From contig NZ_CP042914.1 in the NCBI RefSeq assembly GCF_008065135.1, forward strand, positions 3,699,404 to 3,763,403: DNA of 64,000 nt, given 5' to 3'. Below, piece after piece: positions 7,250 through 60,815 of this stretch. Numbering within the stretch: position 1 is the stretch's first letter; each line of letters starts with the position of its first letter. The stretch is from Roseimaritima ulvae. GTDB lineage: Bacteria > Planctomycetota > Planctomycetia > Pirellulales > Pirellulaceae. Below the pieces are notes generated by a model. That model had not been told where the DNA came from. It did not search any database and was given only the letters and a program-made list of their open reading frames with translations. The position numbers and the translations under genes are program-made.

Positions 7250-7295
7250 CAAACGCACCAGTGTTTGAGAGTGGTTTCGCTGCGGAGAACGTGCC

Positions 7296-11507: not shown

Positions 11508-11573
11508 CGTAGCCGAACTCGCCAGAGTTTGGACGTTTCCCGGAGCCCCCAAAGCCTGGCGACTTCGGCTACC
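11508..11573. repeat. REP-B pair (one + copy, one - copy) downstream of purM
   Basis: The sequence is cgtagccgaactcgccagagtttggacg ... cctggcgacttcggctacc. Confidence 0.7.
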
Positions 11574-14452: not shown

Positions 14453-14558
14453 CGTAGCCAAAGTCGCCAGACTTTGGACTCACACTCGTAGCATGGGCCC
14501 CTGGCCCGTGTGGCTAGTTGCCCCCGTTGTACTTCGGGCCGGGGCCCATGCTATAAGG
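14453..14558. repeat. Mixed REP cluster: one REP-B copy, then two REP-A copies (+ then -)
   Basis: The sequence is cgtagccaaagtcgccagactttggac, then cgtagcatgggcccctggcccgtgtgg, then cgggccggggcccatgctataagg. Confidence 0.7.
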
Positions 14559-16383: not shown

Positions 16384-16406
16384 CCGAAGTCGTCAGACTT
16401 TGGACG
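16377..16406. repeat. Single REP-B copy; its GTAG supplies the TAG stop codon of the CitG-like gene
   Basis: The sequence is cccgtagccgaagtcgtcagactttggacg. Confidence 0.65.
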
Positions 16407-17116: not shown

Positions 17117-17202
17117 TTCGGGATGCCGACAGCCAAGCAGCAGCGAGCGGAGATTGAAAAGCAGCGGTTGAGAAACCGTTGGGAGGTTACGGTTGGGGGT
17201 AC

Positions 17203-17258
17203 GCTGGCCGGGGGCCCATGCTACGGAGGCGCGGGCACGGGCCGGGGGCCCATGCTAC
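17203..17258. repeat. Two tandem REP-A copies (- orientation)
   Basis: The sequence is ggccgggggcccatgctacgg ... cacgggccgggggcccatgctac. Confidence 0.7.
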
Positions 17259-20865: not shown

Positions 20866-21054
20866 AAATCTCAAATCTCAAATCTCAAATCTCAAATCTC
20901 AAATCTCAGATCTGAGATCTCAGATCTGAGATCTCAGATCTCAGATCTCAGATCTCAGATCTCAGATCTCAGATCTCAGATCTCAGATCTCAGATCTCAA
21001 ATCCCAAATCCCAAATCCCAAATCTCAAATCCCAAATCCCAAATCCCAAATCCC
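20866..21054. repeat. Heptanucleotide microsatellite, about 27 units: (AAATCTC)5, (AGATCTG/AGATCTC)~14, (AAATCCC/AAATCTC)~8
   Basis: It is a perfect 7-bp periodicity over 189 bp. The central block is a run of overlapping BglII-type palindromes (agatct). Confidence 0.9.
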
Positions 21055-21062
21055 TCCAACAA

Positions 21063-21107
21063 CCAAACTCTGGCGAGTTCGGCTACGCCTTACCATTCGG
21101 CTACGCC
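21063..21107. repeat. REP-B copy plus a partial copy (- orientation)
   Basis: The sequence is ccaaactctggcgagttcggctacg ... ccattcggctacgcc. Confidence 0.65.
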
Positions 21108-21122
21108 TTACCAACCACCAAC

Positions 21123-21138: not shown

Positions 21139-21204
21139 TCTTCTTCTGTTCGCTTCCAGCCCTGCCAATTTCGGTAACGGCTCCCTACGATGAGGAACGA
21201 CTCC

Positions 21205-23886: not shown

Positions 23887-23906
23887 AGTAGCATGGGCCC
23901 CTGGCC

Positions 23907-25437: not shown

Positions 25438-25575
25438 GCCCCTGGCCCGTGTAAAAAAGACGTCTCTCCTTCTCCAGAACACGGGCCGGGGACCCATGCT
25501 ACGGTTTCCAGAACACGGGCCGGGGACCCATGCTACGGCTTCCAGAACACGGGCCGGGGACCCATGCTACGGGGA
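25438..25575. repeat. REP-A remnant at the IS junction plus three tandem REP-A copies (ccagaacacgggccggggacccatgctacgg x3). The last GTAG supplies the TAG stop of the giant ATPase gene.
   Basis: Read directly. The spacers between copies (ttccagaa) are identical, so this is not a CRISPR array. Confidence 0.75.
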
Positions 25576-30840: not shown

Positions 30841-30934
30841 CTTTATGCCTCACACTTGCACTCGGTGGCGACGCTCGCCGGAGCGTGGAAAACCCACCTT
30901 CTGGCGAAGGTAGCTACGGAAGGTATCAGGAGCG

Positions 30935-35135: not shown

Positions 35136-36587
35136 TTGGTCTCGCCCGAGATCGAATCAGAATTTCAACTTAGCCGTCCAGCGACTTCGGCTATGGCTGT
35201 ACTGGGAATAGAATCCATGCGTGCGTGTGTAAGTCTGGTGATCGTCGTTTGCTCCGCTGTAACAGCCTGTGCTCAGCAACCCGCGGCGGATTCCGCTGCG
35301 CGGATTGGTACCGGTGACGGCGTCGCCGACGATACGGCGGCCATCCAGGCGGCCGTCGATCGCTCTACCGGTAACATTCAACTAGGCAAAGGGACCTACC
35401 GAATCACCAAGCCGATTGTGATCGACCTGGACAAAGTCACTACGACGGCGATCCATGGCAACGGCGTGGCAAGGATCGTGATGGAAGGCGCCGGGCCCGC
35501 GTTTCGGTTCAAAGGAACGCATCAAGGAACCGCCGCGCCGCGGACCTTCAAGGTTCGTACCTGGGACCGGGAAAGTTCACCAATGGTCGACGGCCTGGAG
35601 ATCGTCGGCAAGCACGCCGAGGCTTGCGGCATCGAAGCCGATGGCACGATGCAATTGACGGTCACACGGGTTGTCGTTCGCGAAGCCTTGCACGGGATCC
35701 ACCTGATCGGCCGTAACCGCAATGTCACGCTGTCCGAATGCCACGTCTTTAATGGAACCGGCGTGGGAGTGTTTTTGGATCATTTGAACCTGCACCAGAT
35801 CAATATCGTGGGTTGTCATATCAGTTACAACGATCGCGGTGGGATCGTGCTGAAAGACAGCGAGGTCCGCAATCTACAGATCGGCAGCTGTGACATCGAA
35901 GGCAACATGGGCGGCGCAGACAGCGAACCGGCGGCCAACATCTTACTCGATGCCAGCGGCACCTCGATCGGCGAAGTCGCCATCACCGGCTGCACCATTC
36001 AACATTCCCACGACGCTCCCAAATCCGCCAATATCCGCATCCTGGGGCGTTCCAAAGCGGTGCCGTTTACTAGCGAACAGCGGCATGGCAACTTTACCAT
36101 CGCCAACAACATCCTCTCCGACGTCCAGGTCAACATCGACATCAAAGACGCTCGCGGCGTGGCCATCACCGGCAACACGATCTGGAAAGGTTTTAGCAGC
36201 AACCTGGTTGTGGAAAACTGCCAAAGCGTGGTGATGAGCGGCAATGTATTCGATCGCAATCCACGTTACGGCTATGGCGACGGTAAAGACGCCAAAGGCG
36301 GGGCCAAGTTCACCGGCTGCAGCGACTGCACGATCAGCGGCAACCACTTTTACGGCAAAGTCGCCGCTGAGGCCGCTTTGGTGCTGCGTCGCTGTCAACG
36401 ACTTAACGTCACCGGCTGTTCCATCTTAGACTATGGCAACTGCGGCCTGCTGCTCGATCAGGTAACCCGCAGCCGAGTGTCGGACTGTCTGATCCGCGAC
36501 GACCGGCCGCAAGCCGAAGGCGTTTCGATCGCGCAATCAGGCGACAACCAAGTTCAGATCAGCGATTGTCAGCTGAGTCACCCGTAG
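35136..36587 (+). CDS. Secreted right-handed parallel beta-helix (pectate-lyase superfamily) protein. The start is probably MAVLGIESM at ~35196, with a signal peptide.
   Basis: It has repeated beta-helix rung motifs (NxxIxxN / GxxxxGC, ITGCTI, ITGNTI, ISGNHF, VTGCSI). Its TAG stop is supplied by the following REP. Confidence 0.65.
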   Translation: MVSPEIESEFQLSRPATSAMAVLGIESMRACVSLVIVVCSAVTACAQQPAADSAARIGTGDGVADDTAAIQAAVDRSTGNIQLGKGTYRITKPIVIDLDKVTTTAIHGNGVARIVMEGAGPAFRFKGTHQGTAAPRTFKVRTWDRESSPMVDGLEIVGKHAEACGIEADGTMQLTVTRVVVREALHGIHLIGRNRNVTLSECHVFNGTGVGVFLDHLNLHQINIVGCHISYNDRGGIVLKDSEVRNLQIGSCDIEGNMGGADSEPAANILLDASGTSIGEVAITGCTIQHSHDAPKSANIRILGRSKAVPFTSEQRHGNFTIANNILSDVQVNIDIKDARGVAITGNTIWKGFSSNLVVENCQSVVMSGNVFDRNPRYGYGDGKDAKGGAKFTGCSDCTISGNHFYGKVAAEAALVLRRCQRLNVTGCSILDYGNCGLLLDQVTRSRVSDCLIRDDRPQAEGVSIAQSGDNQVQISDCQLSHP

Positions 36588-36738
36588 CCGAAGTCGTTCG
36601 ACGGTGGAGGCAGGCCGTTCCCGTCCAATCTCTGGCGCGATCGGCTACGGTGCGCTGCGACCACGCTCTGGTGAGCGTAGCTACGGGGACGCGGTAGTTA
36701 GGATGCGCGGTCCCACGCTCTGGCGAGCGTAGCTACGG
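36584..36738. repeat. REP-B cluster of 4 copies (one degenerate + copy and three - copies)
   Basis: The sequence is gtagccgaagtcgttcgacggtgg ... ctctggcgcgatcggctacgg ... cacgctctggtgagcgtagctacgg ... cacgctctggcgagcgtagctacgg. Confidence 0.7.
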
Positions 36739-36740
36739 TG

Positions 36741-37445
36741 TTAGGCGGCTTGTTCTAGGCGGGTGGCGTGCAGGATCGTGAACAGCGAAAACGGGGACGA
36801 CTTGGGCTGGACCTTGACTTCCAGCGGCAGTTCGCCCACCACGTCGCCGTAGCTGACATTGGTCCGCCAGCCCAAGTGCCGCGTGAAGGGGTCGGCGCGA
36901 TCGATGACTTTGGCCACCCAGGGATTTTCACTGCGGAAGTGATTAATGATCAATACGCTGCCACCGGGTTTCACCACCCGCGCGATTTCGGACATCATTT
37001 CCTGTGGGTCCGAGACGACGCTGACCACGTGGAAGGTGGTGACAAAGTCGAACGACTGATCGGGAAACTCCAGTTTCTGAGCGTTCATGGGTTGGACATT
37101 GATATGGTCCCAGCCTTCGCGTTCGATTTTCACGCGAGCTTGTGCCAACATGTCGTCCGACAGATCGATGCCGGTGACTTCCGCGTGTTTGGGATAAGCC
37201 GGCATCGACATGCCCGTGCCGATGCCTACTTCCAGCACCTTCGCGTTGGGAGTGATATTCAGCGCTTCGATGCTGCGCAGCACCCGGCGGCGGACGATCA
37301 GCGGCCACAGGGCTTCATAGGCGGGGATAAATTTGCTGTATAAGCGGCTGTGTTCGGGATTGGCCTGTTTGGCGGTTGGTTTGCCGGCCGGTTTAGCGGG
37401 TTTTACAGGTTTGGCGGGAGGAGAGTCTTTAAGTGTTGTGTTCAT
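36741..37445 (-). CDS. Class I SAM-dependent methyltransferase (Methyltransf_11/UbiE-like)
   Basis: It has VLEVGIGTGMS (motif I) and a downstream acidic motif II. Confidence 0.75.
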   Translation of the reverse strand: MNTTLKDSPPAKPVKPAKPAGKPTAKQANPEHSRLYSKFIPAYEALWPLIVRRRVLRSIEALNITPNAKVLEVGIGTGMSMPAYPKHAEVTGIDLSDDMLAQARVKIEREGWDHINVQPMNAQKLEFPDQSFDFVTTFHVVSVVSDPQEMMSEIARVVKPGGSVLIINHFRSENPWVAKVIDRADPFTRHLGWRTNVSYGDVVGELPLEVKVQPKSSPFSLFTILHATRLEQAA

Positions 37446-37654
37446 GCCTTAGTTCCGTCTGACGCTGTCGACTACGAGCCACTTCTATTTTCCCCTAAGG
37501 GTCGCGATTTTTTATCTTCGCGTCAACTCGGCTGCAACCCGGCGGAATTGCGTTAAGTCCTTGCCCTGTCGAGCTTTAGTGAATTAGTGAAGGCGATCCG
37601 GCGATCCTTTTTTTGCCAACTATTGCGCAGCGTTGACATTCGGATTACGGATCA

Positions 37655-38557
37655 TCAGCCGTCACTAGGGCTGGATTCGGTTTCGCCGCCCACGACTGGC
37701 TTGGGGGCGGCGGGTCGCATCAAGCCGATCCGCTCGGCCAAGTACCGTAGGGGTACGCTAAAGGCGTAGAAACACAGGGCCAACGGCAGCGCCAGCTCGT
37801 TAAACAGGAACACCCCGCCAATCGCAAACAAAGCCTGTCCGATCTGATGCGGCGCTTTGCGGCCGCGGAGCCATTGTTGGACCACGTGCGGATAGCGGAA
37901 TCGAGACACCATCAAGTACGCTAGGGCCAGGGCGGTCAGGGGCACGACGTATTGAAAGGCGACCAAACCATTGAGGGCCAGCGACTGAATGCGGTCGCCG
38001 TAGTCCGGGGTGGCTAGCGAGTGCAGGTGGGGGATGGAAATCACAAACGCGGCGATCGTGCCTGCGGCCGCCGGACTGGGGAGGCCCTCAAAACCATCGT
38101 GGGGATCGTCTTCTTCGGTTTCGACGTTAAATCGCGCTAACCGCATCAACACGCACAACGTGAACACGACGCCGATTGCCCAGGACAAGCGGTGTGGAAA
38201 GACATCGCTGTACCGCCACAGGATCACGGCCGGGGCGGCGCCGAAGGTGATCGCATCGCACAGGCTGTCCAGCTCTGCACCAAACTGGCTGGACTGATTG
38301 GTCATCCGCGCGGCCGAACCATCGAGGGCGTCAAACACCATGCCGATAAAGATCAGCACACCGGCGATAAACAGCTTTTGATCGTTTTCCCAAGGCAAAT
38401 TGACGCTCACGGCCACCGCAATGGAGGCCATTCCGCAGACGCCGTTGCCGAGGGTCAACATCGTCGGCAGGACGGCCAAGGTCAAACGACGCTTGCCGGC
38501 CCGTCGCTTTCTATCACCGGTTCGCCGAGGCCAAATGCGGCGTCTGAGTTCGCTCAC
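37655..38557 (-). CDS. pssA: CDP-alcohol phosphatidyltransferase (phosphatidylserine synthase-like)
   Basis: It has the D-G-x2-A-R...G-x3-D-x3-D motif (DALDGSAARMTNQSSQFGAELDSLCD) and multiple TM helices. Confidence 0.65.
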   Translation of the reverse strand: MSELRRRIWPRRTGDRKRRAGKRRLTLAVLPTMLTLGNGVCGMASIAVAVSVNLPWENDQKLFIAGVLIFIGMVFDALDGSAARMTNQSSQFGAELDSLCDAITFGAAPAVILWRYSDVFPHRLSWAIGVVFTLCVLMRLARFNVETEEDDPHDGFEGLPSPAAAGTIAAFVISIPHLHSLATPDYGDRIQSLALNGLVAFQYVVPLTALALAYLMVSRFRYPHVVQQWLRGRKAPHQIGQALFAIGGVFLFNELALPLALCFYAFSVPLRYLAERIGLMRPAAPKPVVGGETESSPSDG

Positions 38558-38659
38558 GAGGGATCTTTCGATTCAAAAAAAGAGGGAGGTCTATAACAAT
38601 CTACCAGCATCGCGTCTTCGGGTCGCCCGCTATACTCACCATTCTCGATTCCCCAACCC

Positions 38660-40291
38660 TTGCAACCAGAGCCCATGACGCCCCGCTACCTTGTGCCGTT
38701 TCATCCCAAGCAGGTTCCGCACCATTTTGTGGATCTTTTGATTATTGGCAGTGGTTTGGCCGGTCTGCGCGCCGCGCACGCTGCTCATCCGCACCAAACC
38801 GTGCTGCTGGTCACCAAGGATCAGCTGCGCGAATCCAACAGCAACTACGCTCAGGGCGGGATCGCCGGCGTCCTGGGGCCGGGGGACGATTTTGAGAGTC
38901 ACGTCTCCGATACCTTAATCGCTGGCGGAAATTTATGCGATTCCGAAGTCGTGGAGATGGTGATTCGCGAAGGGCCCCGGCGGATCGAAGAACTGATCGA
39001 ATGGGGGACAAAGTTCGACCAAACCAAGGGGCGGCTGGCGCTGGGGCGTGAAGGCGGCCACAGCCACCAGCGAATCGTGCACGCCCACGGCGACGCGACG
39101 GGCCGCGAGGTGATGCGGGCCATGATCGCCCATACCCGCCAGCGGCCCAACAATCTGATTTGGGAGCAGGCCTTCACGCTGGACCTGCTGACCCACGATG
39201 GTCGCTGTCGCGGTGCCCTGATTTCCCGCGACGGTGGACCTCCCACCCTGGTCTGGGCCAAGCAGACGATCCTCTGCACCGGCGGCGCCGGCCAAGTGTT
39301 TCGCGAATCCACCAATCCGCTCGTGGCCACCGGCGACGGATTTGGCTTGGCCTATCGAGCCGGCGTGGAACTTCGCGACATGGAATTTATCCAGTTCCAC
39401 CCCACCGTGCTGTACATCGCCGGCTCATCGCGTTCGCTGATCACCGAAGCGATCCGCGGGGAAGGGGCACATCTGATCGACGTCAACGGGCATCGGTTCA
39501 TGCCGGCGTATGACCAGCGCGCGGAACTTGCGCCCCGCGATGTGGTCAGCCAATCGATCATCCAGCACATGGCCGAGACGACTCACAACTGCGTCTATTT
39601 GGACCTGTCGCATCTGGACCGCGGTGAAGTCCTGAATCGCTTTCCGGGCATCGCCGCCACCTGTGCCAAATTCGGCTTGGACATCGCCCAAGATCGCATC
39701 CCGGTTCGTCCCGGAGCTCACTACATGGTCGGCGGCGTGACCGTGGACCGTGCGGGACGAACCAGTTTACCGGGCTTGTGGGCGGCCGGCGAAGTCACCA
39801 GCAGCGGCTTGCACGGCGCCAATCGGTTGGCCAGCAACAGTTTGTTGGAAGGTTTGGTGTACGGGGCCTTCGCCGGCCAGGGAGCGGCGCGTGAAGCGGC
39901 GGAGATGCCGGACACGATGACGGCGCTGCCCATCGAGTGCTCGCCGATCAAACACAAGTCGCAGTCCTTGGACTTCGCCGATATTCGGGCTTCACTGAAA
40001 AGCGTGATGGGCCGGCTGGTGGGCGTGCAGCGAAACGCCGCGGGATTGCGAGAAGCGATCACCACCATCGATTCGTTCTTCGCCTACGTGATGCCGCAGC
40101 AGTTTCAAGACGAAACCGGCTGGGAGACGCAGAATATGCTGCTGACCTCGCGGATGATGGCCACTGCTGCCCTGGCTCGCGAAGAATCACGCGGCGTTCA
40201 CTTCCGCACCGATTTCCCCAGCAGCAACGACGAAACGTGGCGCCGTCACCTGGCCATCCAAATCGACAAGTGCGGCGGCCATCCGCAGTAG
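38660..40291 (+). CDS. nadB: L-aspartate oxidase NadB
   Basis: It has an FAD-binding N-terminus (DLLIIGSGLAGLRAA), fumarate-reductase/succinate-dehydrogenase flavoprotein motifs (HYMVGGV, NRLASNSLLEG) and a C-terminal capping domain. Confidence 0.85.
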   Translation: MQPEPMTPRYLVPFHPKQVPHHFVDLLIIGSGLAGLRAAHAAHPHQTVLLVTKDQLRESNSNYAQGGIAGVLGPGDDFESHVSDTLIAGGNLCDSEVVEMVIREGPRRIEELIEWGTKFDQTKGRLALGREGGHSHQRIVHAHGDATGREVMRAMIAHTRQRPNNLIWEQAFTLDLLTHDGRCRGALISRDGGPPTLVWAKQTILCTGGAGQVFRESTNPLVATGDGFGLAYRAGVELRDMEFIQFHPTVLYIAGSSRSLITEAIRGEGAHLIDVNGHRFMPAYDQRAELAPRDVVSQSIIQHMAETTHNCVYLDLSHLDRGEVLNRFPGIAATCAKFGLDIAQDRIPVRPGAHYMVGGVTVDRAGRTSLPGLWAAGEVTSSGLHGANRLASNSLLEGLVYGAFAGQGAAREAAEMPDTMTALPIECSPIKHKSQSLDFADIRASLKSVMGRLVGVQRNAAGLREAITTIDSFFAYVMPQQFQDETGWETQNMLLTSRMMATAALAREESRGVHFRTDFPSSNDETWRRHLAIQIDKCGGHPQ

Positions 40292-40301
40292 CGGACCGGC
40301 G

Positions 40302-40416
40302 CATCGTAGCTACGCTCGCCAGAGCGTGGGACCACGCGCCGTCCCCCACCGTCTGGCGACGGTAGCTACGACCCACCGTCTGGCGACGGTAGCTACGAGA
40401 GGGTGGTCGCTACGGC
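40302..40416. repeat. REP-B cluster (one + copy, two - copies and a partial copy). The partial copy supplies the stop codon of the downstream convergent gene.
   Basis: The sequence is gtagctacgctcgccagagcgtggga ... cgtctggcgacggtagctacga (x2) ... cgctacgg. Confidence 0.7.
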
Positions 40417-46754: not shown

Positions 46755-47704
46755 ACGTAGCCACGCTGGTTGAAAAACGCCGCGCTCAATGGGCCGAATT
46801 GGAAACATTGTGCGGAGGCGTGGTGTCGCCCGAAAACGCGGCCCGGTTTGCGGCGCTGTACCGAGCCGCCTGCGCGGATTTGGCGTTGGCCAGTGCCTAC
46901 CAACTGCCTCCCGGTACGGTCACCTACCTGCATCGTCTGGTAGGCCGCGCCCACAGTCGCTTGTACCGGAGCAAACGCTTCGATCCGATGACTTGGTTCG
47001 ACACGATCTTTGTCGATGCCCCACGCCAGATTTTTTCGGATCCCTGCGTGCGGATCGCGGCGATTTTGTTTTTTGGTTTGTTCTCGCTGTCGGCGTACCT
47101 GGCCTACAACGAAGAAGCCTTTCCGACCTACGCGGAAGATATCGTTGGCGTCGCCACGCTGGAACAGATGGAGGACAGCTTCGAGCCCGGCTTGGACGGC
47201 AACTTCGGCCATTATATCTCCATGGCCGGGTTCTACATCAAACACAACACGGGTATCGGACTGCAGTGTTTTGCTTACGGGATATTGCTGATTCCGTGTG
47301 TCTTTATTCTCTGTTACAACGCCGTCGCATTGGGCGCCAGTTTCGGCTATATGGCTCGCGAAGGGGTGCCCGGCGGCGACACGTTTTGCGAGTTTGTGAC
47401 CGCGCACGGTCCCTTTGAATTGACGGCCATCGCGTTGTCGGCCGGGGCCGGATTGCGGTTGGGAATGGGCTTGTTCCGTACCGAAGGTCGAACCCGCGTC
47501 GCCTCCTTGAAAGCCAACGCACTGCAAGCGGTGCCGATCATGGTGGCCGCCGCGATCATGTTTTTCCTGGCCGCGTTTACCGAAGGCTTTATTTCGCCCA
47601 GCCCGCTGTACTATCCGCTCAAAGCCGCCTGGGCGATCATGTCTTCGGGCGTGTTGATGTTCTATTTTGTTGTGCTGGGCTTCCCCCGCGGGGGGCTGCG
47701 TTAA
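46751..47704 (+). CDS. Stage II sporulation protein M-like (SpoIIM/DUF95) membrane protein. It has a 4-nt overlap with the RDD gene.
   Basis: It has the pattern of 5-6 TM segments and its position in the conserved RDD-SpoIIM-DUF4129-DUF4350-MoxR arrangement. Confidence 0.5.
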   Translation: MNVATLVEKRRAQWAELETLCGGVVSPENAARFAALYRAACADLALASAYQLPPGTVTYLHRLVGRAHSRLYRSKRFDPMTWFDTIFVDAPRQIFSDPCVRIAAILFFGLFSLSAYLAYNEEAFPTYAEDIVGVATLEQMEDSFEPGLDGNFGHYISMAGFYIKHNTGIGLQCFAYGILLIPCVFILCYNAVALGASFGYMAREGVPGGDTFCEFVTAHGPFELTAIALSAGAGLRLGMGLFRTEGRTRVASLKANALQAVPIMVAAAIMFFLAAFTEGFISPSPLYYPLKAAWAIMSSGVLMFYFVVLGFPRGGLR

Positions 47705-47705
47705 G

Positions 47706-48683
47706 ATGCAATTGGACCGCACTCATGTGAGCGTTCGCGCTCGTAGTCTGGCCGAGATTGGCGACCTGTCGCTGCTGTTAGTACGTCGATATTCCGGCGC
47801 TTTGGTGGTGGGGTTTACGCTGGGCCTATTGCCTTGGGCGATCTTGAATTTTCTGTTGCTCGGCTACATCCCCATCAACGAAGCACGCGACGGGATCATC
47901 GACGAACAAACGTATTACGAACGGGCGCGATACGTGTGGCTGATGTGCGCGTTGGTGTTTTTACAAACGCCCATCGCCGGAATATTTACCACCTACTACA
48001 TCGGTCAAGCGGTGTTTGAGGAACGTCCGCCCTGGGCGACGGTGGTCAAAGCCTGTCGACAATCTCTGCTGCCGGTGTTATGGGTGCTGGGTACGCTTCG
48101 TGGCCCGCTGGTCGCGATGGCTTTGTTGGCTACCAACTGGGGCGGTGAATTCGCACCGGGACGGGAATTGTTTTGGGTGTTGGTGATCGTGTTGTGGGCG
48201 GCATTGATTCGCAGCATCCGCCCATTCATGCCGGAAATTCTGTTGCTGGAACGATGCCCGTTGCGAGCGGCCCGTGGACAGGAAACGACCATCACCGCCT
48301 CCCGTCGCAGCGGCTTGCTGCACTCGCCACTGAGCGGGGACCTGATCGGACGTTATTTGATGACGGCCATCATCGTGGCAGCCTTAGCACTCGGCGTGTT
48401 TTACGGAATCATGGCCGTTCGTGGTTTCCTCAGCACCGAATGGAACTGGACGTTGCATCTGGGCTCATTGCCGATCTCGGACGTGCAGCTGCTGTGGCTG
48501 CCGTTGGCGCTGTGGATCGTGGCGGGGCTGAGTATTTTCATGCGGTTCCTCGGTTACCTGGACGCCCGCATTCGACTGGAAGGCTGGGAAGTCGAGTTGG
48601 CCGTTCGCGCCGAAGCGCTGCGGCAGTTTGGCACCGAATCGTCCCCCGTGTTGTCGACGCCTCAAGCGGAGAACGTCGCATGA
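47706..48683 (+). CDS. Hypothetical polytopic membrane protein
   Basis: It has 7 or more hydrophobic segments. No family is recognised. Confidence 0.4.
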   Translation: MQLDRTHVSVRARSLAEIGDLSLLLVRRYSGALVVGFTLGLLPWAILNFLLLGYIPINEARDGIIDEQTYYERARYVWLMCALVFLQTPIAGIFTTYYIGQAVFEERPPWATVVKACRQSLLPVLWVLGTLRGPLVAMALLATNWGGEFAPGRELFWVLVIVLWAALIRSIRPFMPEILLLERCPLRAARGQETTITASRRSGLLHSPLSGDLIGRYLMTAIIVAALALGVFYGIMAVRGFLSTEWNWTLHLGSLPISDVQLLWLPLALWIVAGLSIFMRFLGYLDARIRLEGWEVELAVRAEALRQFGTESSPVLSTPQAENVA

Positions 48684-49555
48684 TCTGTTTCGTCACGCAC
48701 TTCGTCGCTACGCTCGCCAGAGCGTGGGGACGGACAAGTTCGCCGCGGTCAGCTGCCAGCCTACTGATCTTGCTTGCCACCGCCTTGTCGGCCGCCAGCC
48801 AGGAAACGTCCGTTCCTACCGCCGCCGAAGTCGAATCCAATATCGCGGAATCGGTTGGCGACACCGCTTGGTACGACAGCGAAACCCAGCAATTGCGTCC
48901 GGTCACCGTCCGCGAACGCATCGACGATGCCAGTAATCGCAACAGCCGCTGGCTGCCCAAACCTGAGCGAGTTAGCAGAGCGAACCCTGCCGCCGGTGGT
49001 GGCGGAGGCGGCGCGACGGGCGTGGGCACCAGCAGCGCGAGCAATATCATTGGCTGGGTTCTGATGACCTTTCTGGCGGTCCTGATGATCGGTGTGTTGG
49101 TGTACTTCTTCAGCAAGGGCGAAATGGAAGTCGACATCGGAGCGGGCAAACGCCGTAAGACGCGGCACGATCCCTTTGATCAAGACCTGACCGAACGAAT
49201 GGAACAACTGCCCGTCGAAGTTCGCCAACAGGGCAGCGACATGCGTGGCGAAGCCGAACGACGGATGCGGGCCGGTGACTTTGATACCGCCATCATCTAT
49301 TTGTTCGGGCATCAATTGCTGCAACTCGACCGCTACCAAATGTTGCGTCTCTCGCGTGGCAAAACCAATCGGCAGTACGTCCGCGAAGCCAACGCCAGCG
49401 GCGAATCCGGCCGCATCCTGCAACAAACCGTCGACAGCTTCGAAGCTTCCTACTTTGGTCGCCACGCGGTCACCGCCTCCCGTTTCGAATTTCTCTGGAA
49501 GGAAAACGAGCGACTGGAACAGCTCCTGCGTCAACATCGTGAGGCCGCCGCATGA
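48680..49555 (+). CDS. DUF4129-like protein with an N-terminal signal/TM segment. The true start is probably downstream of the REP, near 48730, and may be non-ATG.
   Basis: The C-terminal conserved region (ASYFGRHAVTASRFEFLWKE) resembles DUF4129. The first ~15 codons are REP-derived (VATLARAWG). Confidence 0.5.
   Translation: MICFVTHFVATLARAWGRTSSPRSAASLLILLATALSAASQETSVPTAAEVESNIAESVGDTAWYDSETQQLRPVTVRERIDDASNRNSRWLPKPERVSRANPAAGGGGGGATGVGTSSASNIIGWVLMTFLAVLMIGVLVYFFSKGEMEVDIGAGKRRKTRHDPFDQDLTERMEQLPVEVRQQGSDMRGEAERRMRAGDFDTAIIYLFGHQLLQLDRYQMLRLSRGKTNRQYVREANASGESGRILQQTVDSFEASYFGRHAVTASRFEFLWKENERLEQLLRQHREAAA
48703..48729. repeat. REP-B copy with a GTCGC head variant. It lies inside the 5' end of the ORF called at 48680.
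   Basis: tcgctacgctcgccagagcgtggg is identical to the 40308 copy apart from the head. Confidence 0.55.
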
Positions 49556-52145: not shown

Positions 52146-52896
52146 ACCCTCCTTTTTAAGGGGCGCATCCTACGAGCCGCGGCGTGAACCGCGGCGTTTA
52201 GACGAAGTACGCCGAAGGCGTTATAGCCAATAGCCGGCGGTCGAGCGCAGCGACCACCGCCGAAACAGACGCGACGAAAATCTGGCTCCCCTCTCCCCCA
52301 AGCAAGCTTGGGGTGGTGCAGTGGATATCGGATAGCCAGTTAGCTCTCCCCATCTCTTCGCGTTGGTTTCCGGAGCTTGCTTGGGGGAGAGGGGCTGGGG
52401 GTGGCCTGGTAAAAATGATTGCGTGGTGGTTGTCTAGGCGGTTTAGAAACGTCTGGGCGACACGTGTCCCCCCTCCCCCAAATATTTCGCGTCATGAATC
52501 TGGGTTGATAGAGGACTTAGTGCGCGAAATATTTGGGGGAGGGGGGACCGGAATTCGCTCGCGTACCCACGATAAAGCCAGATTGGTTCGGGGCGACCAC
52601 GACAAAGGGTTACGGATTTTTACCAGGCCACCCCCAGCCCCTCTCCCCCAAAACAAGCCTTTGCAGCGGTGTCGTTTGACCTAAAAAACGAGCGGTAGCG
52701 TTGGAATCAAACCTGTTGTTAGCAGGCTTGTTTTGGGGGAGAGGGGGGCCCGATTTTGCCCGTTTCTTTCCGGTGGTGGCGCTGCGCTGACCACCGGCTA
52801 TTGGCTGAAATTCCCTTCGGGAATAGGGCGGGAATCGTTACCGCGTCACTGTCGACTGACGCGGCTCGCAGGATGCGCCCCTTTTTAAGGAGGGTC
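52146..52896. repeat. Giant nested imperfect palindrome (~750 bp, symmetry centre ~52520). At least four pairs of long inverted repeats share the same centre and carry CCCCTCTCCCCCA/TGGGGGAGAGGGG motifs.
   Basis: The pairs are 52146-52181 with 52860-52896 (accctcctttttaaggggcgcatcctacgagccgcg), 52222-52262 with 52770-52811 (tatagccaatagccggcggtcgagcgcagcgaccacc), 52288-52310 with 52724-52752, and 52377-52416 with 52624-52660 (gcttgcttgggggagaggggctgggggtggcctggtaaaaat). A 26-bp perfect inverted repeat sits at 52466-52491 / 52521-52546. Confidence 0.8.
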
Positions 52897-54627: not shown

Positions 54628-54724
54628 CGTAGCTACCGTCGCCAGACGGTGGTTTCGCTGTAGCTACCGTCGCCAGACGGTGGTTCCGCTGTAGTCCCCC
54701 CACGCTCTGGCGAGCGTAGCTACG
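54628..54724. repeat. REP-B cluster (two + copies, one - copy)
   Basis: The sequence is cgtagctaccgtcgccagacggtgg x2 ... ccacgctctggcgagcgtagctacg. Confidence 0.7.
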
Positions 54725-54734
54725 CAGAATGTGC

Positions 54735-56109
54735 TCAGCGCGACGCCGCTTTCGCGATACTTTCATAATGTTTTTGCTGCAGCGCTTGCAACGTTTGAAC
54801 AATCTCTGGATGGTCGGCGGCGAGGTTCTTGGTTTCGCCGATATCCTGCTTCAAATTTGCCAGAAACAATTTGTCGACGTTCACGCGGCGTTGGCGATCG
54901 GTCGTGTCTCGAGCATTCCCGAGCAGCTTCCAGTCGCCTTGGCGAACCGCCCACTGCGCATTTTTCCCGCCGCCCAGTTGCCAATAGAAATGATCGTGAG
55001 GACTCTCCGCGTCTTGGTTCTTTAACACCGCCGCCAAACTTTTGCCGTCCAGGTGATGCTCGGGAAGTTCGATGCCGCAGAGCTCGGCGATTGTTGGGAA
55101 CCAGTCGCAGCCGGTCGCCAGCTGATCACGGGTTTCGTTTTGGGGGATCGTGCCGGGCATCGAAACCACCGAGGGAACCCGCAGGCCGCCCTCGAACAGA
55201 CTGGCCTTGGCACCTCGGTACGGTCCCGCGTTGCCGCCACCCCAAAACGCTCTTTCCTCGGTTGAATGTCCGTGGTCGGATTGCACCACGATCAGCGTGT
55301 TCTCCCGCAAGCCCAACTGATCCAGCGTGCCGATCAAATCACCGATCTTTTCGTCTACGGTCGAAACAAATTCGGCATACTGACGGCGGGGAGAAGGCAA
55401 GTCCTTGTAGTGTTCACGCCACTTGCTGGTGCCTTGCATCGGGTAGTGCGGCGCGTTGATTGCCCAGTACATGAAAAACGGACCATCGCGATTCGCTTTG
55501 ATAAACTGCTGACCTTCCTCCACCATCAGGTCTAAGAAAAACTGCCCATCGCGAAAGATCTCCTTGCCGTCCCGCCAAAGATCATGACGGTTGGGGCCGT
55601 TCCAGTAGAAGAAGTGGGAATAGTTGTCGATGCAACCACCCATGTGCCCGAAGGAGGAATCGAATCCCTGTCCGTTTGGCATCGTCTCCGGTGTATACCC
55701 TAGATGCCACTTGCCAACGTGCCCGGTGGCGTATCCGGCCGACTTCATCAGCTCGGCGATCGTCATTTCCGAGCTCGGCATGCCGGGATGCCCCTTGCCC
55801 GACGAAACGTTGCTGGGGACTCCGGCGCGTGCCGGGAAACGACCGGTCATCAAACCGGCTCGCGATGACGAACAAATCGCCGAGGGGGAGTACATCTGTG
55901 TAAACCGCACGCCTTGGCTGGCCAATTCATCCAGCTGCGGGGTGTGCAGGTCCCGGGAACCGTAGCAGTTCAAGTCGAGACTTCCCTGATCATCGGTGTA
56001 GATAATGATCACATTCGGTCTTGCGTCCGCAGCACCCACGCGCGGTAGCCGCGACACGGCATGCACCAGAACAACGAAAGACAGTAAACACAGCAGGTTT
56101 CGGATCACG
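54735..56109 (-). CDS. Secreted sulfatase (arylsulfatase / GALNS-like). The ORF track extends to 56414 through a REP palindrome. The start is probably a GTG near 56108 (VIRNLLCLLSFVVLV signal).
   Basis: It has sulfatase signature II (GYATGHVGKWHLG) and signature I with an unusual Ser at the Pro position (AICSSSRAGLMTG). Confidence 0.75.
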
Positions 56110-56174
56110 AAGTTTGACTCCAAAGGGGTAGCAGCAAGCGGATGTCCACGCCCAACAAAACGCAGTGGCCGCTG

Positions 56175-56241
56175 CCGTAGCCGAACTCGCCAGAGTTTGG
56201 ACGTTGGGTTGACCGTCCAAACTCTGGCGAGTTCGGCTACG
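56175..56241. repeat. REP-B inverted pair forming a perfect 28-bp-armed palindrome (REPIN-like doublet)
   Basis: The sequence is ccgtagccgaactcgccagagtttggacg-ttgggttgac-cgtccaaactctggcgagttcggctacg. Confidence 0.8.
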
Positions 56242-56438
56242 TGTGCGCGGTCGTCACGTGTTGTTGGGCGACGGGGTGCACATTGTAACATCGACAGATT
56301 CGTTCCGACCGGGGCAGATGATTTTAGTCTTCTAAACAGCGCCGTTTCGTTAACGCTCAGGGTTTGCCGCCCGCACCGCCGAAACCTACCGATGAACAGT
56401 CTGTTTGCGATCATTGGTTATTTTTGGAGCTGCGTTGG

Positions 56439-57848
56439 ATGACGGTCATCGCCCCGGTTTATTGGCACGAGGGAATGTTTCTCCGCCCCCAGCACTTTCA
56501 GGTCGCCGAACGCAACTTAGAAAGCCAGATCCGCGACAACGTGCAGTGGAATCAGCACTACAGTTGGGGGCTGCGGCGGTTTCAATTGGACGCCGACGCA
56601 CTGGCCAACCATCGCGTGGTGATCTCGGACTTAGCCCTACGCATGCGCGACGGCACGATCGTGTCTTGTCCCGAGATGTGTCAGCTGCCGGAATTGGATC
56701 TGCGTCAAAGCCTTAGCGGGACCCGAGCGTTGACGGTGTTTGCCGCCGTCCCCAAACCCTCGGTGACTCAAAATGCAGACGAAGATCGGGACAGGTATCG
56801 TATCGAAACGCTCGACCTGCAGGACCAAAATACCGGCCAGAACGCTCGTCCGATTCAAGTCCGGCGGCTGAACCTGCGGCTGCTGACCGACGCCGACGAC
56901 CACGCTGGCTTTGCCACTATGCCGCTGATGCGAGTTCGCGGCGCCGATCGCGCAGGCGGAGCGCCGGAACTGGACCGCACCTATATCCCGCCCTTATTGG
57001 CGGTCGACGCTTGGAAGACGCTGGAACAAGAGATCGTGCGGCCCGTGTTCGACCGGATCGGCAAGAAGCTGGAATTGGTTTCCAATCAGGTGATCTCACG
57101 AGGCATCACGTTCGATTCCAGTTCCCAAGGCGACCGTGTCATCTTGGAACAGATGCGGGTTATGAACGAGACGTACGCGGAATTGAGCGTACGAGCGCTG
57201 ATGCCGGGAATGCATCCGATCGACGTGTTCCGCCATCTGTTGAACTTCGTTGGACGGATGGCCGTGTTCACGCCGGCCCGACGCGTCCCGGAGCTGCCCA
57301 AGTACGATCATGACGATCTGGGGCAATGTTTTTGGGCCGCGCGGCGACTGGTCGACGGCGTGCTGGACGCGGTTACCGAACCGGAGTTCTGTGAGCGAGC
57401 TTTTGTTGGCGCAGGGCAGAGGGTGCAGGTAGCGTTGGAGCCGGCGTGGTTGGAACCCGGTCAGCGAATGTTTGTCGCCGTCACATCCAACTTGCCCACC
57501 GAACAAACACGTCAGCTGGTAGAGCGGCGTTTGGACATGAAAATCGGTGCCGGCAGCACGGTCGACGAATTGTATCGGTTGGGACGCGCAGGGTTGCAGT
57601 TCGACCACCAAGACCACCCGCCACGCTGCCTACCGCTGCGACCAGGCCGCGTGTTCTTTGGGATCGATAACTCGCACAGCGAAGACCAATGGGAATCGGT
57701 GCAACGAGAGTTGGCCTTGGCGGTGCGATTTAACGAAAATCTGATCGCCGGCGACGTCCAGGGACAACACGCCATCGGAATCACGGTTGATGGCCATGGG
57801 GCGACGTTGGAGTTTGTGTTGTACGTCGTCCCCCCCTCGGCGATCTAG
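56439..57848 (+). CDS. tssK: Type VI secretion baseplate subunit TssK-like protein (DUF876/VasE family). No other tss genes are present in the window.
   Basis: The N-terminus (VYWHEGMFLRPQHFQ) matches the near-invariant TssK start (W-x-EGMFL-x-PQHFQQ). The internal RLNLRLL...MPLMRV block matches the conserved TssK shoulder motif. The length (~469 aa) is typical. Confidence 0.6.
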   Translation: MTVIAPVYWHEGMFLRPQHFQVAERNLESQIRDNVQWNQHYSWGLRRFQLDADALANHRVVISDLALRMRDGTIVSCPEMCQLPELDLRQSLSGTRALTVFAAVPKPSVTQNADEDRDRYRIETLDLQDQNTGQNARPIQVRRLNLRLLTDADDHAGFATMPLMRVRGADRAGGAPELDRTYIPPLLAVDAWKTLEQEIVRPVFDRIGKKLELVSNQVISRGITFDSSSQGDRVILEQMRVMNETYAELSVRALMPGMHPIDVFRHLLNFVGRMAVFTPARRVPELPKYDHDDLGQCFWAARRLVDGVLDAVTEPEFCERAFVGAGQRVQVALEPAWLEPGQRMFVAVTSNLPTEQTRQLVERRLDMKIGAGSTVDELYRLGRAGLQFDHQDHPPRCLPLRPGRVFFGIDNSHSEDQWESVQRELALAVRFNENLIAGDVQGQHAIGITVDGHGATLEFVLYVVPPSAI

Positions 57849-57896
57849 CGTGCGGGGCACGACTTGTCGTCTGGCGTTTGGTCGGTAGTGGGATCC

Positions 57897-57952
57897 AAAC
57901 GGGAATCCAAACTCTGGCGAGTTCGGCTACGGGGGCGAGTTCGGCTACGGGG
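57897..57952. repeat. REP-B copy plus a partial copy (- orientation)
   Basis: The sequence is ccaaactctggcgagttcggctacgggggcgagttcggctacgggg. Confidence 0.65.
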
Positions 57953-60815
57953 ACGCTTGGACCGTGTAGTTCAGTACGCGGCGGCCATCTTGTTCGGCCG
58001 CTCGCAGCAACAGGGTCTGGCCCAACAGGGAACGACCGTTGGGCAGTGAGAATTCGCGTCGCACCCGCTGGCCAGCGTTCACGCTAACGGTTTGCCGTTG
58101 ATACTGGCGACCGGGCGGAAACAAGCGGCAATCGTAACTCTGACGCTGCTCGGATGAGTTTTCCATTTCCAGTCGCACGACCAAGTTGTCTTGTTCGTCC
58201 AGCCGCGTGGTGATCTGCACCTCCAAACCTTCCGGGCCGACACGCAGTTGCCGATAGACGAGAAACGGATGCGGTCCGGCTTGGGAGAGTCGAAACTGCA
58301 GGGCGATGGTTTCGACGCCCGTTTTAGCGTTGGAGCGGAGCGTGATGGGCACCGGTTGATCCAGAGTTCCCGAGCCGCGGATCTGCCAGGGCACGGGGTA
58401 ACGCGGCAATTCCCAAGCGTCGCCGGCGGACATCAGCATATCGCCTTCGAGCGCATTGGATTGGGGGTTCTTCATCTTCACGGCGACAAACTGCGCACGC
58501 CCCAACAGACTGTCGATGGACGCCCGGTCGAGTTCCACTTCCATCCGGAACTGCGTCATCAGCGGATGCAAGCCGAGGATGAATTTTGGGACCGGACCGG
58601 CTTCGAGCACCTGTCGCGTGACGCCCTGACGATCGACCTTGGCCGCGGCGGTTCGGACGCCCCACACCGATAGTTCTTCGATGTTTTCGCCCAAATAGAT
58701 TTCTTCTTCAGTCGGCTGCGAATTCCACAATACCATCACGCTGCGGTGACCATCGGAGAGCACGATATTGGAACTGCCGTTGGGCAACCGCAGGCTGCCG
58801 ATGCGTTGCAACGTGCCCAACGTGGCGGCGGTGGTTCGCCAGGGCAACAGCATAATGTCGGGCAGGCCATCGGGCTGCAGCAGGCCGGTTTCGGGATTCG
58901 TGGGATCGGACACAAAGGCGGCTTCGACGGCGTGGCCGCGGACGGTGGCCATTCGCAAGACCAGGTCACGGATACGGGTATCGGTGTCGTAGCTAGACTT
59001 GGGCAGCGGATCCAGCAGTAACCAAGTGCGAGTGCTGCCGCTGGACTTTTGCGGGTCCAATTCGATTTCTAGGTAAGCGTCTAGCTCGTCGGCCGTAAAT
59101 GTCTCCGCCTCACTCCGCGTCACGGCTTTCCAAACCCGTTCGCTGCCGGCCGGTTGAGGTTCCAGCCAGGGCCAGGAGAGGACCATATTCAGCGGTTGCC
59201 CGTATCCCTGCAGGCCTCGCTGGATGCTTTCGATGGTTTCTCGCAGTCGAGCCCGGTCGAGGAAGCTGAAGTCGCGTTCGTTGCCCAGTTGCCACCATTG
59301 GACCTTCATCGTCAGACGGCTCATCAGGGTTTCGAGCAGCGGTTGCCAGACGTCTTGATCGCGGAACACATTAACGGCTTGAACTGGTCGTCGAGCGTCG
59401 ATTTCCGGCGCCGTGCCGCTGGGCGGTTGGTTCAGCAAACCCACGACCTGAATGCCGCTTTCCATCAGCCGATTGACCATCCAGGAAAGTTGATCGCCGG
59501 CTTCCAAATCGGCAGCATCGATCCAACAAGGATATTTCAGCCAACCGACGTGGCAGTTGCGGAGCCACTCCGGCAACGCTCGCAAGTCGCCGCGGGGCGC
59601 TCCTTCGGGTAGGGTCCAACCAAACGGTCCGGCTTGGCCCGGCAAGGGTTCGATAACCACAAACGTGGTTTCGGTTTGCAACGCGCTGCGGTCGGCGGCG
59701 ATCAGTTCCGCTGTCATGCGGTAGAACCCTGGCGGCAGGTCCGCCAGTTTCCAATTCGCCAAACCACCGTAGGCCAACAATTGGGAATCATCTTGGTGGG
59801 TGTCGACCGGCGAGATAAAGTCCTCGATCGGCTGCTGGTGGGCATCGAACAGCGTAAAGTGGATGGAGGCGGTTTTGAAACGCAGCCCCATCGCTTCGGC
59901 CGAGATCTCGACCGTATCGCCGCGTGCATAGATTCCCGTAGCCGAGGCACCGCGAACGTGCAGTTGGGGAAATTGATTCAGTTGCAGTTGGTCGAATTGG
60001 ACTTCGCCGCGAATGTCGGCGCCCGGACCGGTCGGCTCCACCCGCACTCGCAAGACCGCTTCGGTACAGCCGGGCGGCGGCGCGATAGCGGGCGTATGCA
60101 CGAGGCTCCAAGACGTTGTACCACCGAGTTTTTCGGTGGCTGTGGTTTTGAGCGGCTGGCCCTGGGCATCGAGGAACACGATTTCGGCCCAACCGCTGTC
60201 GTGTTCCAAACCGTGCGTTTGGATGCGGCTGCTGAGCACATAGCTGTACATCGCACTGACGGGAAATTTGGGACTCTGCAGCAGCGCCCCGCCGCCGTCC
60301 AGCCGCACGCTGAGGTATTGGCTGGAAACCAGGTCGCCCATTGCCGGGGGCAGCCCGGGCATCGCCCCGGCGGTGGCTTGAACAAGACGTGTCCACCGTG
60401 TGGGCAGGCCCGGCAGCCAATTGGGGGTGGCAGCCAGTTTCAGCCGCGTCTGGACCCACCACGGCAGCAGTTTGGCGTCGGCCGCTTTAGCGAACGTTTC
60501 CAACGCGGTTTCGGCGGATTGAATATCAATGGCAACGTATTCGGGATAATTGCGTCCGCTGCGCCGCTGCCAGCCGTCCGGCCAAGTGTCGAAATCGCGG
60601 TCGTCGTGGCGATCGAAGTCCCAACGCTGAACGACCTGTCCGTGCGAGACGCGGGGGGACTGCGCAGGCCGACCGAGCGACGGGGCCGCGGGCGCGGCGG
60701 CATGGGCCCGTGTCAGGCAGCACGCCCAGACCAGCTGGACGGCCAGCAGGATGCCTGCCATAGCCACCACAGGGCAAGTCTTTAGAATAGCGGCGTTCGC
60801 TCGCGTCGGATGCAC
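57945..60815 (-). CDS. Large secreted protein (956 aa) of unknown function, possibly with a glycoside-hydrolase-like TIM-barrel central region
   Basis: It has a signal peptide (AMAGILLAVQLVWACCLTRAHAAAP) and Trp-rich segments. No confident family is recognised. Confidence 0.4.
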   Translation of the reverse strand: MHPTRANAAILKTCPVVAMAGILLAVQLVWACCLTRAHAAAPAAPSLGRPAQSPRVSHGQVVQRWDFDRHDDRDFDTWPDGWQRRSGRNYPEYVAIDIQSAETALETFAKAADAKLLPWWVQTRLKLAATPNWLPGLPTRWTRLVQATAGAMPGLPPAMGDLVSSQYLSVRLDGGGALLQSPKFPVSAMYSYVLSSRIQTHGLEHDSGWAEIVFLDAQGQPLKTTATEKLGGTTSWSLVHTPAIAPPPGCTEAVLRVRVEPTGPGADIRGEVQFDQLQLNQFPQLHVRGASATGIYARGDTVEISAEAMGLRFKTASIHFTLFDAHQQPIEDFISPVDTHQDDSQLLAYGGLANWKLADLPPGFYRMTAELIAADRSALQTETTFVVIEPLPGQAGPFGWTLPEGAPRGDLRALPEWLRNCHVGWLKYPCWIDAADLEAGDQLSWMVNRLMESGIQVVGLLNQPPSGTAPEIDARRPVQAVNVFRDQDVWQPLLETLMSRLTMKVQWWQLGNERDFSFLDRARLRETIESIQRGLQGYGQPLNMVLSWPWLEPQPAGSERVWKAVTRSEAETFTADELDAYLEIELDPQKSSGSTRTWLLLDPLPKSSYDTDTRIRDLVLRMATVRGHAVEAAFVSDPTNPETGLLQPDGLPDIMLLPWRTTAATLGTLQRIGSLRLPNGSSNIVLSDGHRSVMVLWNSQPTEEEIYLGENIEELSVWGVRTAAAKVDRQGVTRQVLEAGPVPKFILGLHPLMTQFRMEVELDRASIDSLLGRAQFVAVKMKNPQSNALEGDMLMSAGDAWELPRYPVPWQIRGSGTLDQPVPITLRSNAKTGVETIALQFRLSQAGPHPFLVYRQLRVGPEGLEVQITTRLDEQDNLVVRLEMENSSEQRQSYDCRLFPPGRQYQRQTVSVNAGQRVRREFSLPNGRSLLGQTLLLRAAEQDGRRVLNYTVQASP

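Follow-up and report, generated by a model that had tools for sequence, protein, structure and literature searches.

The stretch analysed here, referred to throughout as the window, comprises 64,000 nucleotides of the Roseimaritima ulvae UC8 chromosome (NZ_CP042914.1, positions 3,699,404 to 3,763,403 of the forward strand; G+C content 59%). Its intergenic spaces carry short hairpins headed by the tetranucleotide GTAG, which are considered here as repetitive extragenic palindromes (REPs), together with their putative mobilising enzymes, the REP-associated tyrosine transposases (RAYTs). All unit counts, sites and spacers given for R. ulvae are drawn from this window. The focal example, at 56175-56241, lies in the divergent gap between the start of a sulfatase gene (~56105) and the start of tssK (56439), and is built from two units of the type named B1:

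56177-56200, + strand: B1 unit forming the left arm, GTAGCCGAACTCGCCAGAGTTTGG, with an 8-bp stem starting from the C of GTAGC, the loop GCCA and a G:T pair at stem position 3.
56217-56240, - strand: B1 unit forming the right arm, head outward, separated from the left unit by a 16-nt spacer.

The two units are identical and their heads point outward. The arms of the doublet (56176-56203 and 56214-56241) are perfectly complementary over 28 nt and, folded as DNA, form a 28-bp hairpin of -38 kcal/mol (z = -11.6). The first-pass annotation of this sequence had described a perfect palindrome of two copies, which is accurate for the identity of the units and for their arms, but not for the element as a whole, as a 10-nt non-palindromic centre lies between the arms and there is no strict palindrome.

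It is very probable that such hairpins are REPs of the GTAG-tagged superfamily, cognate to RAYTs, and that many of them are organised as REPINs, i.e. REP doublets forming long hairpins. Two families were distinguished. The family A pattern (GTAGCATGGGCCCCTGGCCCGTG, up to three mismatches allowed) gave 10 matches in the window against 0.00 expected, and the family B pattern (GTAGC-N6-CGCCAG-N6-G, up to one mismatch allowed) gave 21 against 0.40 expected, figures on which a chance origin was rejected; a single family B match, at 44031, was discarded as a chance hit, leaving 20 real units. The earlier estimate of two GTAG-headed hairpin families at about 16 intergenic sites was close to the final count of 17 sites, reached when the degenerate units (7246, 14529, 36584) and partial heads (58-63, 57934-57951) are added to the 10 A and 20 B units; 31 clear units stand at these sites.

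Each unit is 23-24 nt long, with an 8-bp stem starting from the C after GTAG and a loop that reads CCY in family A and GCCA in family B. The head is GTAG in 30 of the 31 clear units and GTCG in one, its GTA and G being unpaired in the minimum-energy folds. Family B had been credited with a constant loop and head; this is contradicted by the variants CGTCAG (16380) and CACCAG (36661) and by the head GTCGC (48704). The compensatory nature of the stem variation was instead substantiated. Four family B stem types occur in the window (AACT/AGTT, ACGCT/AGCGT, ACCGT/ACGGT and ACCTT/AAGGT), and among 163 independent metagenomic B copies, retrieved with a scan pattern that left four stem positions free, pairs 9-20 and 10-19 were Watson-Crick in 156 and 154 copies, respectively (94-96%), with all four pair types represented, compared with 56 and 46 (29-35%) for shuffled partners. 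In family A, 26 copies carry a G-C to C-G swap, and a T:G wobble is nearly universal. The wobble of family B is G:T at stem position 3 in B1 and T:G at stem position 2 in B2, B3 and B4. The proposal of a G:T mismatch always in the same place therefore stands as regards its recurrence, but not its constancy: two adjacent positions are involved, the unit at 14454 has A:T at stem position 3 and no wobble, and the 163 outside copies have it in only 27% and 34% of cases at the two positions.

Single units folded on the GTAG strand reached z values of -2.6 to -3.0. As DNA, the GTAG strand of B1 folds at -6.5 kcal/mol and its complement at -4.2 kcal/mol, the corresponding values for family A being -7.2 and -5.2 kcal/mol; the GTAG strand is the more stable because the wobble sits near the stem base. 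RNA folding, which had been suggested as a check on the meaning of the wobble, again favoured the GTAG strand over its complement in both families. The Rfam covariance models, applied to the whole window at gathering thresholds, gave no match.

Single units, head-to-tail tandems and head-outward doublets were all found in the window, as first reported. Tandems occur at 25480/25514/25548 (34-nt period), 40346/40373 (27 nt) and 54629/54660 (31 nt), and tandem arrays of this kind, whose periods are 34, 31, 27 and 18 nt, point to local slippage. The tandems with an 18-nt period (57916-57952, 21078-21113 and 5-59) are 100% identical and copy the head half of B1 alone. Identical dispersed copies in the window number six for B1, four for B3 and three for B2. 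All four family B head-outward doublets found by pattern have the 16-nt spacer and measure 64 nt from head to head, and two of the four are B2/B3 heterodoublets. At the loci collected outside the window, head-outward (HH), tail-outward (TT) and head-to-tail (HT) doublets numbered 78, 5 and 13, respectively, for family A, and 42, 1 and 8 for family B; such a prevalence of head-outward doublets is expected for REPINs.

The association with transposases was assessed in other genomes. An exact family A scan of species-representative genomes returned at least 120 tiles of 8 kb, all from Planctomycetota and mostly from Pirellulales, those listed including about 30 metagenome-assembled genomes (MAGs), Rubripirellula obstinata and Roseimaritima sediminicola. 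Eight of the 120 A-bearing tiles listed encode a 224-aa Y1 (HUH/Tyr) transposase flanked by family A units, and these proteins, designated clade A, are 65-75% identical among genomes. A further locus (L128) has A doublets on both sides of the gene, in the order REP+ REP- / RAYT / REP+ REP-; together, the loci where family A flanks a RAYT are L009, L030, L047, L081, L112, L115, L118, L121 and L128. At L126, a RAYT homologue of 61% identity is accompanied by a REP that has diverged to match, GTAGCTTGGGACCATTGTCCCGAG. Many of the family A RAYTs are annotated by the Joint Genome Institute (JGI) as 'REP element-mobilizing transposase RayT'.

Family B flanks a different clade (clade B), typified by RB11751 of Rhodopirellula baltica. 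The nearest relative retrieved, the MAG of Roseimaritima sp. EA21-05, shares synteny with the window (~80% nucleotide identity) and encodes an RB11751-clade RAYT (P0158, locus L259) flanked by the exact B1 24-mer GTAGCCGAACTCGCCAGAGTTTGG, with its own stop codon formed by the TAG of a GTAG head. The neighbours of this RAYT gene are serS and a gene for an SNF2-family helicase, between which it lies. The RB11751 orthologue of Rhodopirellula sp. P2 is flanked by B-type doublets (GTAGCCGGATTCGCCAGAATTCGG), two upstream and four downstream; the loci where B-type units flank a RAYT, besides L259, are L251 and L258. The one weak RAYT match in the B-bearing metagenome stretches, at L160, was rejected, as it lies inside an unrelated 957-aa open reading frame (ORF). 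The earlier attribution to RAYT-type REPs is strengthened by the finding that each family flanks its own RAYT clade in relatives, and each family may be the cognate substrate of that clade, i.e. of a predicted HUH/Y1 enzyme related to the TnpA of IS200/IS605.

Both clades retain the HUH histidines of E. coli RayT (H59 and H61) and the tyrosine of its Y-I-x-x-N-P motif (Y115), with I116, N119 and P120 of that motif likewise invariant (E. coli numbering; alignment A1). The NCBIfam model NF047646 (REP_Tyr_transpos) was the best hit (E-values from 1e-17 to 3e-08), scoring 64 bits for clade A and 34-42 bits for clade B against a cut-off of 80, and Pfam PF01797 (Y1_Tnp, cut-off 23) scored 24-27.5 bits for clade A, which passes, and 14-18 bits for clade B, which fails. 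Judged from alignment and profile scores, the two clades are divergent relatives, and probably no equivalogs, of the enterobacterial RayT.

The 800 kb of A-bearing loci contained 239 A units, no strict match to family B and few B-like hairpins with other loops, and the 590 kb of B-bearing loci contained no A unit. This separation fits separate RAYTs, and a single RAYT for both families was considered unlikely, since they are found apart and each has its own flanked RAYT clade.

In Roseimaritima multifibrata and a number of MAGs (L250, L253, L255 and L257), a sister subclade of RB11751-like RAYTs (P0222 type) is flanked by yet another, third GTAG REP family, GTAGTGGAnnTTGTTAAAnnTCC, which has compensatory stem variants of its own and does not occur in the window. 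Identities of at least 90% were seen among RB11751-clade RAYTs of different genera, between Roseimaritima multifibrata and Rubripirellula obstinata and between Novipirellula species and Rubripirellula amarantea (clusters P0222 and P0265), a conservation unusually high for a transposase-like gene.

The position of the units relative to genes follows a clear rule. On a heuristic gene map of 42 calls, compared with called genes at 30-52 kb and with Pfam, a REP lies no more than 120 nt from 19 gene 3' ends. In 17 cases the nearest unit has the orientation of the gene, with its head towards the stop codon, at a distance of -3 to 33 nt; the other two cases involve convergent gene pairs that share one unit, the gene concerned being the far partner. 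The rule is valid for genes on both strands and therefore follows transcription rather than replication direction. The focal doublet, in its divergent gap, is the one site that breaks it. The remaining units of the window, family B or B-like before family A, are as follows:

27-50, - strand: B1 unit, 8 nt past the stop codon of an EF-hand gene; the head-only motif CCGTAGCC at 58-63 gives that stop codon.
11509-11572, both strands: B1 head-outward doublet (11509-11532 +, 11549-11572 -) with a 16-nt spacer, 18 nt past the stop codon of gene 10328-11491.
14454-14477, + strand: B1 variant without wobble, 3 nt past the stop codon of a TPR gene, opening a mixed B/A cluster.
16380-16403, + strand: B1 variant with CGTCAG in the loop; its GTAG gives the TAG stop codon (16381-16383) of the CitG-like gene 15493-16383.
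21063-21086, - strand: B1 unit beside a 7-nt tandem array, with no gene 3' end adjacent.
30894-30917, - strand: B4 unit (stem ACCTT/AAGGT), 18 nt past the stop codon of gene 30935-33067.
36584-36736, both strands: four-unit B cluster with convergent genes on both sides (36584-36607 +, degenerate; 36625-36648 -; 36661-36684 -, CACCAG; 36713-36736 -, B2).
40306-40396, both strands: three-unit B cluster with convergent genes on both sides (40306-40329 +, B2; 40346-40369 -, B3; 40373-40396 -, B3), i.e. a B2/B3 pair, heads outward and 16 nt apart, followed by a tandem copy at 27 nt.
48704-48727, + strand: B2 unit with the mutated head GTCGC, 21 nt past the stop codon of gene 47667-48683 and within the called start of a DUF4129 gene.
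54629-54723, both strands: three B units past the stop codon of the sulfatase gene (54629-54652 + and 54660-54683 +, B3, in a 31-nt tandem; 54700-54723 -, B2); 54660 and 54700 form a B3/B2 doublet with a 16-nt spacer.
57907-57951, - strand: B1 unit (57907-57930) with an 18-nt tandem duplicate of its head half, whose TAG (57945-57947) terminates the 956-aa gene 57945-60815.
7246-7268, + strand: divergent B-like unit, GTAGCAAACGCACCAGTGTTTGA; its TAG (7247-7249) is the stop codon of the beta-lactamase-like gene 6074-7249.
1858-1962, both strands: family A cluster (1858-1880 +, 1904-1926 -, 1940-1962 -) with the stop codon of gene 1995-3368 on one side and the true EF-hand gene start on the other.
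14488-14553, both strands: family A head-outward pair (14488-14510 +; 14529-14553 -, degenerate), sharing its gap with the B unit at 14454.
17202-17258, - strand: two tandem family A units (17202-17224, with a decayed tail, and 17236-17258), 12 nt past the stop codon of gene 17270-18430.
23888-23910, + strand: family A unit with a decayed tail, 2 nt past the TAA of the ClpB-sized gene 21190-23886.
25480-25570, - strand: three identical family A units in a 34-nt array (25480, 25514, 25548); the last GTAG gives the TAG stop codon of a 1757-aa DUF3686/AAA ATPase.

Several stop codons are themselves contributed by the units. Among the 42 calls, TAG is the commonest stop (16 TAG, 14 TGA and 12 TAA), and eight of the 16 TAG stops sit in a CGTAGC context. 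Four of these belong to the head of a full or degenerate unit, namely those of the CitG-like gene (16381-16383), the beta-helix gene (36585-36587), the 1757-aa ATPase (25567-25569) and the beta-lactamase-like gene (7247-7249). Three more, for the genes ending at 58, 40410 and 57945, fall in a CCGTAGC head motif or half-unit beside a REP, with no complete unit, and gene 11881-12456 has a TAG stop in the CGTAGC context with no hairpin or unit nearby, which may be a chance or relic match. The first-pass list of five genes using a REP-derived TAG is thus upheld for the CitG-like, beta-helix and ATPase genes, whose heads are full or degenerate; the gene ending at 40410 has only a head motif beside a REP, and the fifth, clpB, is a near miss. 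The latter we take to be the ClpB-sized ORF 21190-23886, which reads TAA-A-GTAG at its end. That some 5' extensions of ORFs are simply translated REPs proved correct, the 5' ends of ORFs 58-1995 and 54735-56414 being over-extended through REPs.

Some observations were made beside individual units. The alignment of the window with EA21-05 breaks at the unit at 48704-48727, where an intragenic REP or a miscalled start is possible. The 956-aa gene 57945-60815 had no Pfam match. At 20866-21052, 26.7 tandem copies of the 7-nt motif AAATCTC, drifting to ATCTCAG and ATCCCAA, lie upstream of the ClpB-sized gene and directly abut the B1 REP. A 3.7-kb segment, 36661-40370, carrying genes for a UbiE-like methyltransferase, a CDP-alcohol phosphatidyltransferase and a NadB-like protein, is inverted relative to EA21-05 (L252); the clusters 36584-36736 and 40306-40396 are its two ends, both breakpoints lie inside B2/B3 REP doublets, and inverted repeats are present at the ends in both genomes. 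From this comparison, the inversion looks like the product of recombination between REP doublets. Of a different kind is the stretch 52146-52895, within ~1.1 kb devoid of genes, where three inverted arm pairs contain TTGGGGGAGRGGGG; it includes a perfect 36-nt inverted repeat (52381-52416 and 52616-52651) and an outer one (52146-52181 and 52860-52895). Outside this stretch, TTGGGGGAGRGGGG is absent from the window and was met only twice in 1.39 Mb of other loci; there is no Rfam match.

The unit thus described consists of a single-stranded (C)CGTAG head, an 8-bp stem, usually with one G:T near its base, and a 3-4 nt loop, and a mechanism can be proposed for its spread. A RAYT would recognise the GTAG head and hairpin on the GTAG-carrying strand of single-stranded DNA, and its cleavage and rejoining activity would spread units and doublets into new intergenic sites, after which local slippage would yield the tandem arrays. 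Stems would drift via G:T intermediates to new complementary pairs, RAYT and REP thereby co-diverging. Units would persist almost solely just past stop codons, with the head towards the gene, where they are probably transcribed as 3'-end hairpins and where the TAG of the head may sometimes be taken over as stop codon. The dispersed identical copies, finally, could serve as recombination substrates, of which the 3.7-kb inversion may be an example.

Several results weigh against this scheme. No RAYT was found by tblastn of E. coli RayT, a clade A RAYT and RB11751 against the 64-kb window, nor was an R. ulvae RAYT among the best 120 matches (cluster representatives) of three protein searches or among 20 clusters; four candidates for it (P0073, P0042, P0346 and P0187) were dismissed, as they belong to other organisms. 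The metagenome scan for family B returned at least 120 stretches, and the 590 kb of B-bearing contigs yielded no RAYT, whether searched by tblastn (three queries) or through clustering of all their ORFs against one another. The clade B proteins lie under both the Pfam and the NCBIfam curated cut-offs. In the comparison with EA21-05, both REP sites considered are occupied in both genomes, with unit numbers of 3 vs 2 and 4 vs 2, and no clean insertion or excision was seen at either. One possible explanation is the loss of one RAYT or of both from R. ulvae, another that its proteins rank just under the list cut-off; P0158 itself stands near the bottom of one best-120 protein list, so that an R. 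ulvae orthologue could fall just below. The first-pass annotation would have given up the REP interpretation if a genome without a RAYT also lacked doublet structure; the doublets are clear, and the interpretation is therefore retained.

In a rival reading, the R. ulvae units are now chiefly host elements, transcribed as 3'-end hairpins that would stabilise or delimit mRNAs and affect translation termination; they would be kept by selection and orphaned after RAYT loss. The strict head-to-stop orientation and short distance to stops on both strands, the wobble tolerated on the sense strand only, the stop codons derived from REP heads and the conserved position of REP sites between R. ulvae and EA21-05 all speak for it, as does the missing R. 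ulvae RAYT among the best 120 of three protein searches that name many other Pirellulaceae isolates. The lists, however, hold the best 120 cluster representatives, which makes absence from them weak evidence; the closest relative has a RAYT flanked by an identical B1 unit, the many identical dispersed copies (six B1, four B3 and three B2) fit recent copying, and one doublet sits in a divergent promoter gap, away from 3' ends. We regard a mainly host-driven role as rather unlikely, and it would in any case be compatible with a RAYT origin rather than opposed to it. The stronger proposition, that R. ulvae keeps two large and still homogeneous REPIN populations while having no intact cognate RAYT of clade A or clade B, appears less likely still and is doubtful. 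If true, their persistence would be explained by host use, and both the nearly obligatory placement close to stop codons (at most 33 nt, head towards the gene) and the repeated donation of TAG would be signs of selection acting on mRNA 3' ends or on the termination of translation, not of transposase activity.

The presence of GC-rich hairpins immediately past stop codons could also suggest intrinsic terminators that convergent selection produced separately at every gene end. Yet the same 23-24-mers, unpaired GTAGC head and loop included, are repeated at many loci and in different genera, the stems are followed by no T run (the flanks being ACG.., GGG.., TGG.. and similar), a terminator scan of 55900-58100 gave no site at a REP, and the units flank RAYT genes and commonly form doublets and tandems, so that a terminator origin is highly improbable. 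As for a local duplication family restricted to this chromosome region, some copies are clearly tandem (34-, 27-, 31- and 18-nt periods), but the 17 sites are distributed across the entire 64 kb among unrelated genes, and the same units are present in about 30 other genomes, on many contigs, on at least a dozen tiles along the 4.3-Mb contig of one MAG and in at least 120 metagenome stretches, which leaves this explanation barely credible.

The identification of the units as RAYT-cognate REPs has practical value for annotation, as they account for spurious 5' ORF extensions (peptides of the VAWAPGPC type) and for several stop codons, and also for fragmented short-read assemblies and at least one rearrangement. 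It adds to the knowledge of REPIN-RAYT systems outside Proteobacteria, with two REP families and co-diverging RAYT clades common to many Pirellulales genera. The identity of at least 90% between genera in one RAYT clade is expected of a long-lived system that is vertically kept or domesticated. The current understanding of REPs is unchanged by these results: the observation is real and its interpretation supported, the kind has already been described in Pirellulaceae, and the novelty consists in a further host species.

The first-pass annotation had supposed that such elements were uncatalogued in this lineage, which is incorrect, since GTAG REPs and RAYTs of Rhodopirellula baltica, a member of the same family Pirellulaceae, have been reported. 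R. baltica SH1 harbours the families GTAG-20, GTAG-21 and GTAG-22 and RAYTs including RB11751 (Di Nocera, De Gregorio and Rocco, 2013; PMC3733652). The same study described subfamilies that differ by compensatory changes, frequent GT pairs, clusters and head-outward dimers, the coexistence in one genome of several families that each have a REPtron, placement after coding regions and donation of TAG stop codons (PMC3733652). GTAG-21 resembles family B in its GTAGC head, 8-bp stem and central TCGCCAGA; the REP-encoded peptides VTGFARIR, SRIRQN.. and ..RILANPA (PMC3733652) back-translate to GTA(A/G)CCGGATTCGCCAGAATCCGG, and from this back-translation, GTAGCCGGATTCGCCAGAATCCGG, we infer the architecture of family B. 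The R. ulvae stems belong to other subfamilies (CGAACT/AGTTTG, TACGCT/AGCGTG and TACCGT/ACGGTG), and the doublet spacer is 16 nt in R. ulvae as opposed to ~21-24 nt in Rhodopirellula. Family A, judged by encoded peptides, falls outside the three families of R. baltica.

Comparable features are found in more distant systems. TnpA of IS608, a member of IS200/IS605, is a Y1 HUH enzyme for which imperfect hairpins, on one strand of the DNA, are the recognition sites, and provides the mechanistic model of how RAYTs would act; unlike IS200/IS605 elements, REPs have no transposase of their own, the RAYT gene lying between REPs. With the REPs and bacterial interspersed mosaic elements (BIMEs) of E. 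coli and their RayT (YafM, b0228), the planctomycete units share the 5' GTAG beside an imperfect hairpin, the extragenic location mostly past gene 3' ends and an enzyme with HUH and Tyr residues, whereas the E. coli REPs have longer, bulged stems and BIMEs that include other motifs, the planctomycete units being shorter, with an 8-bp stem and a 3-4 nt loop. The REPIN-RAYT systems of Pseudomonas fluorescens, which show long vertical persistence, likewise have inverted doublets forming long hairpins, a family-specific flanked RAYT and several families per genome (PMC3116915; PMC5581495). Their long-lasting association has its parallel here in the recurrence of the same families across Pirellulales genera, although the planctomycete systems involve other RAYT clades (~22-24% identity to E. 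coli RayT), other REP sequences and another phylum.

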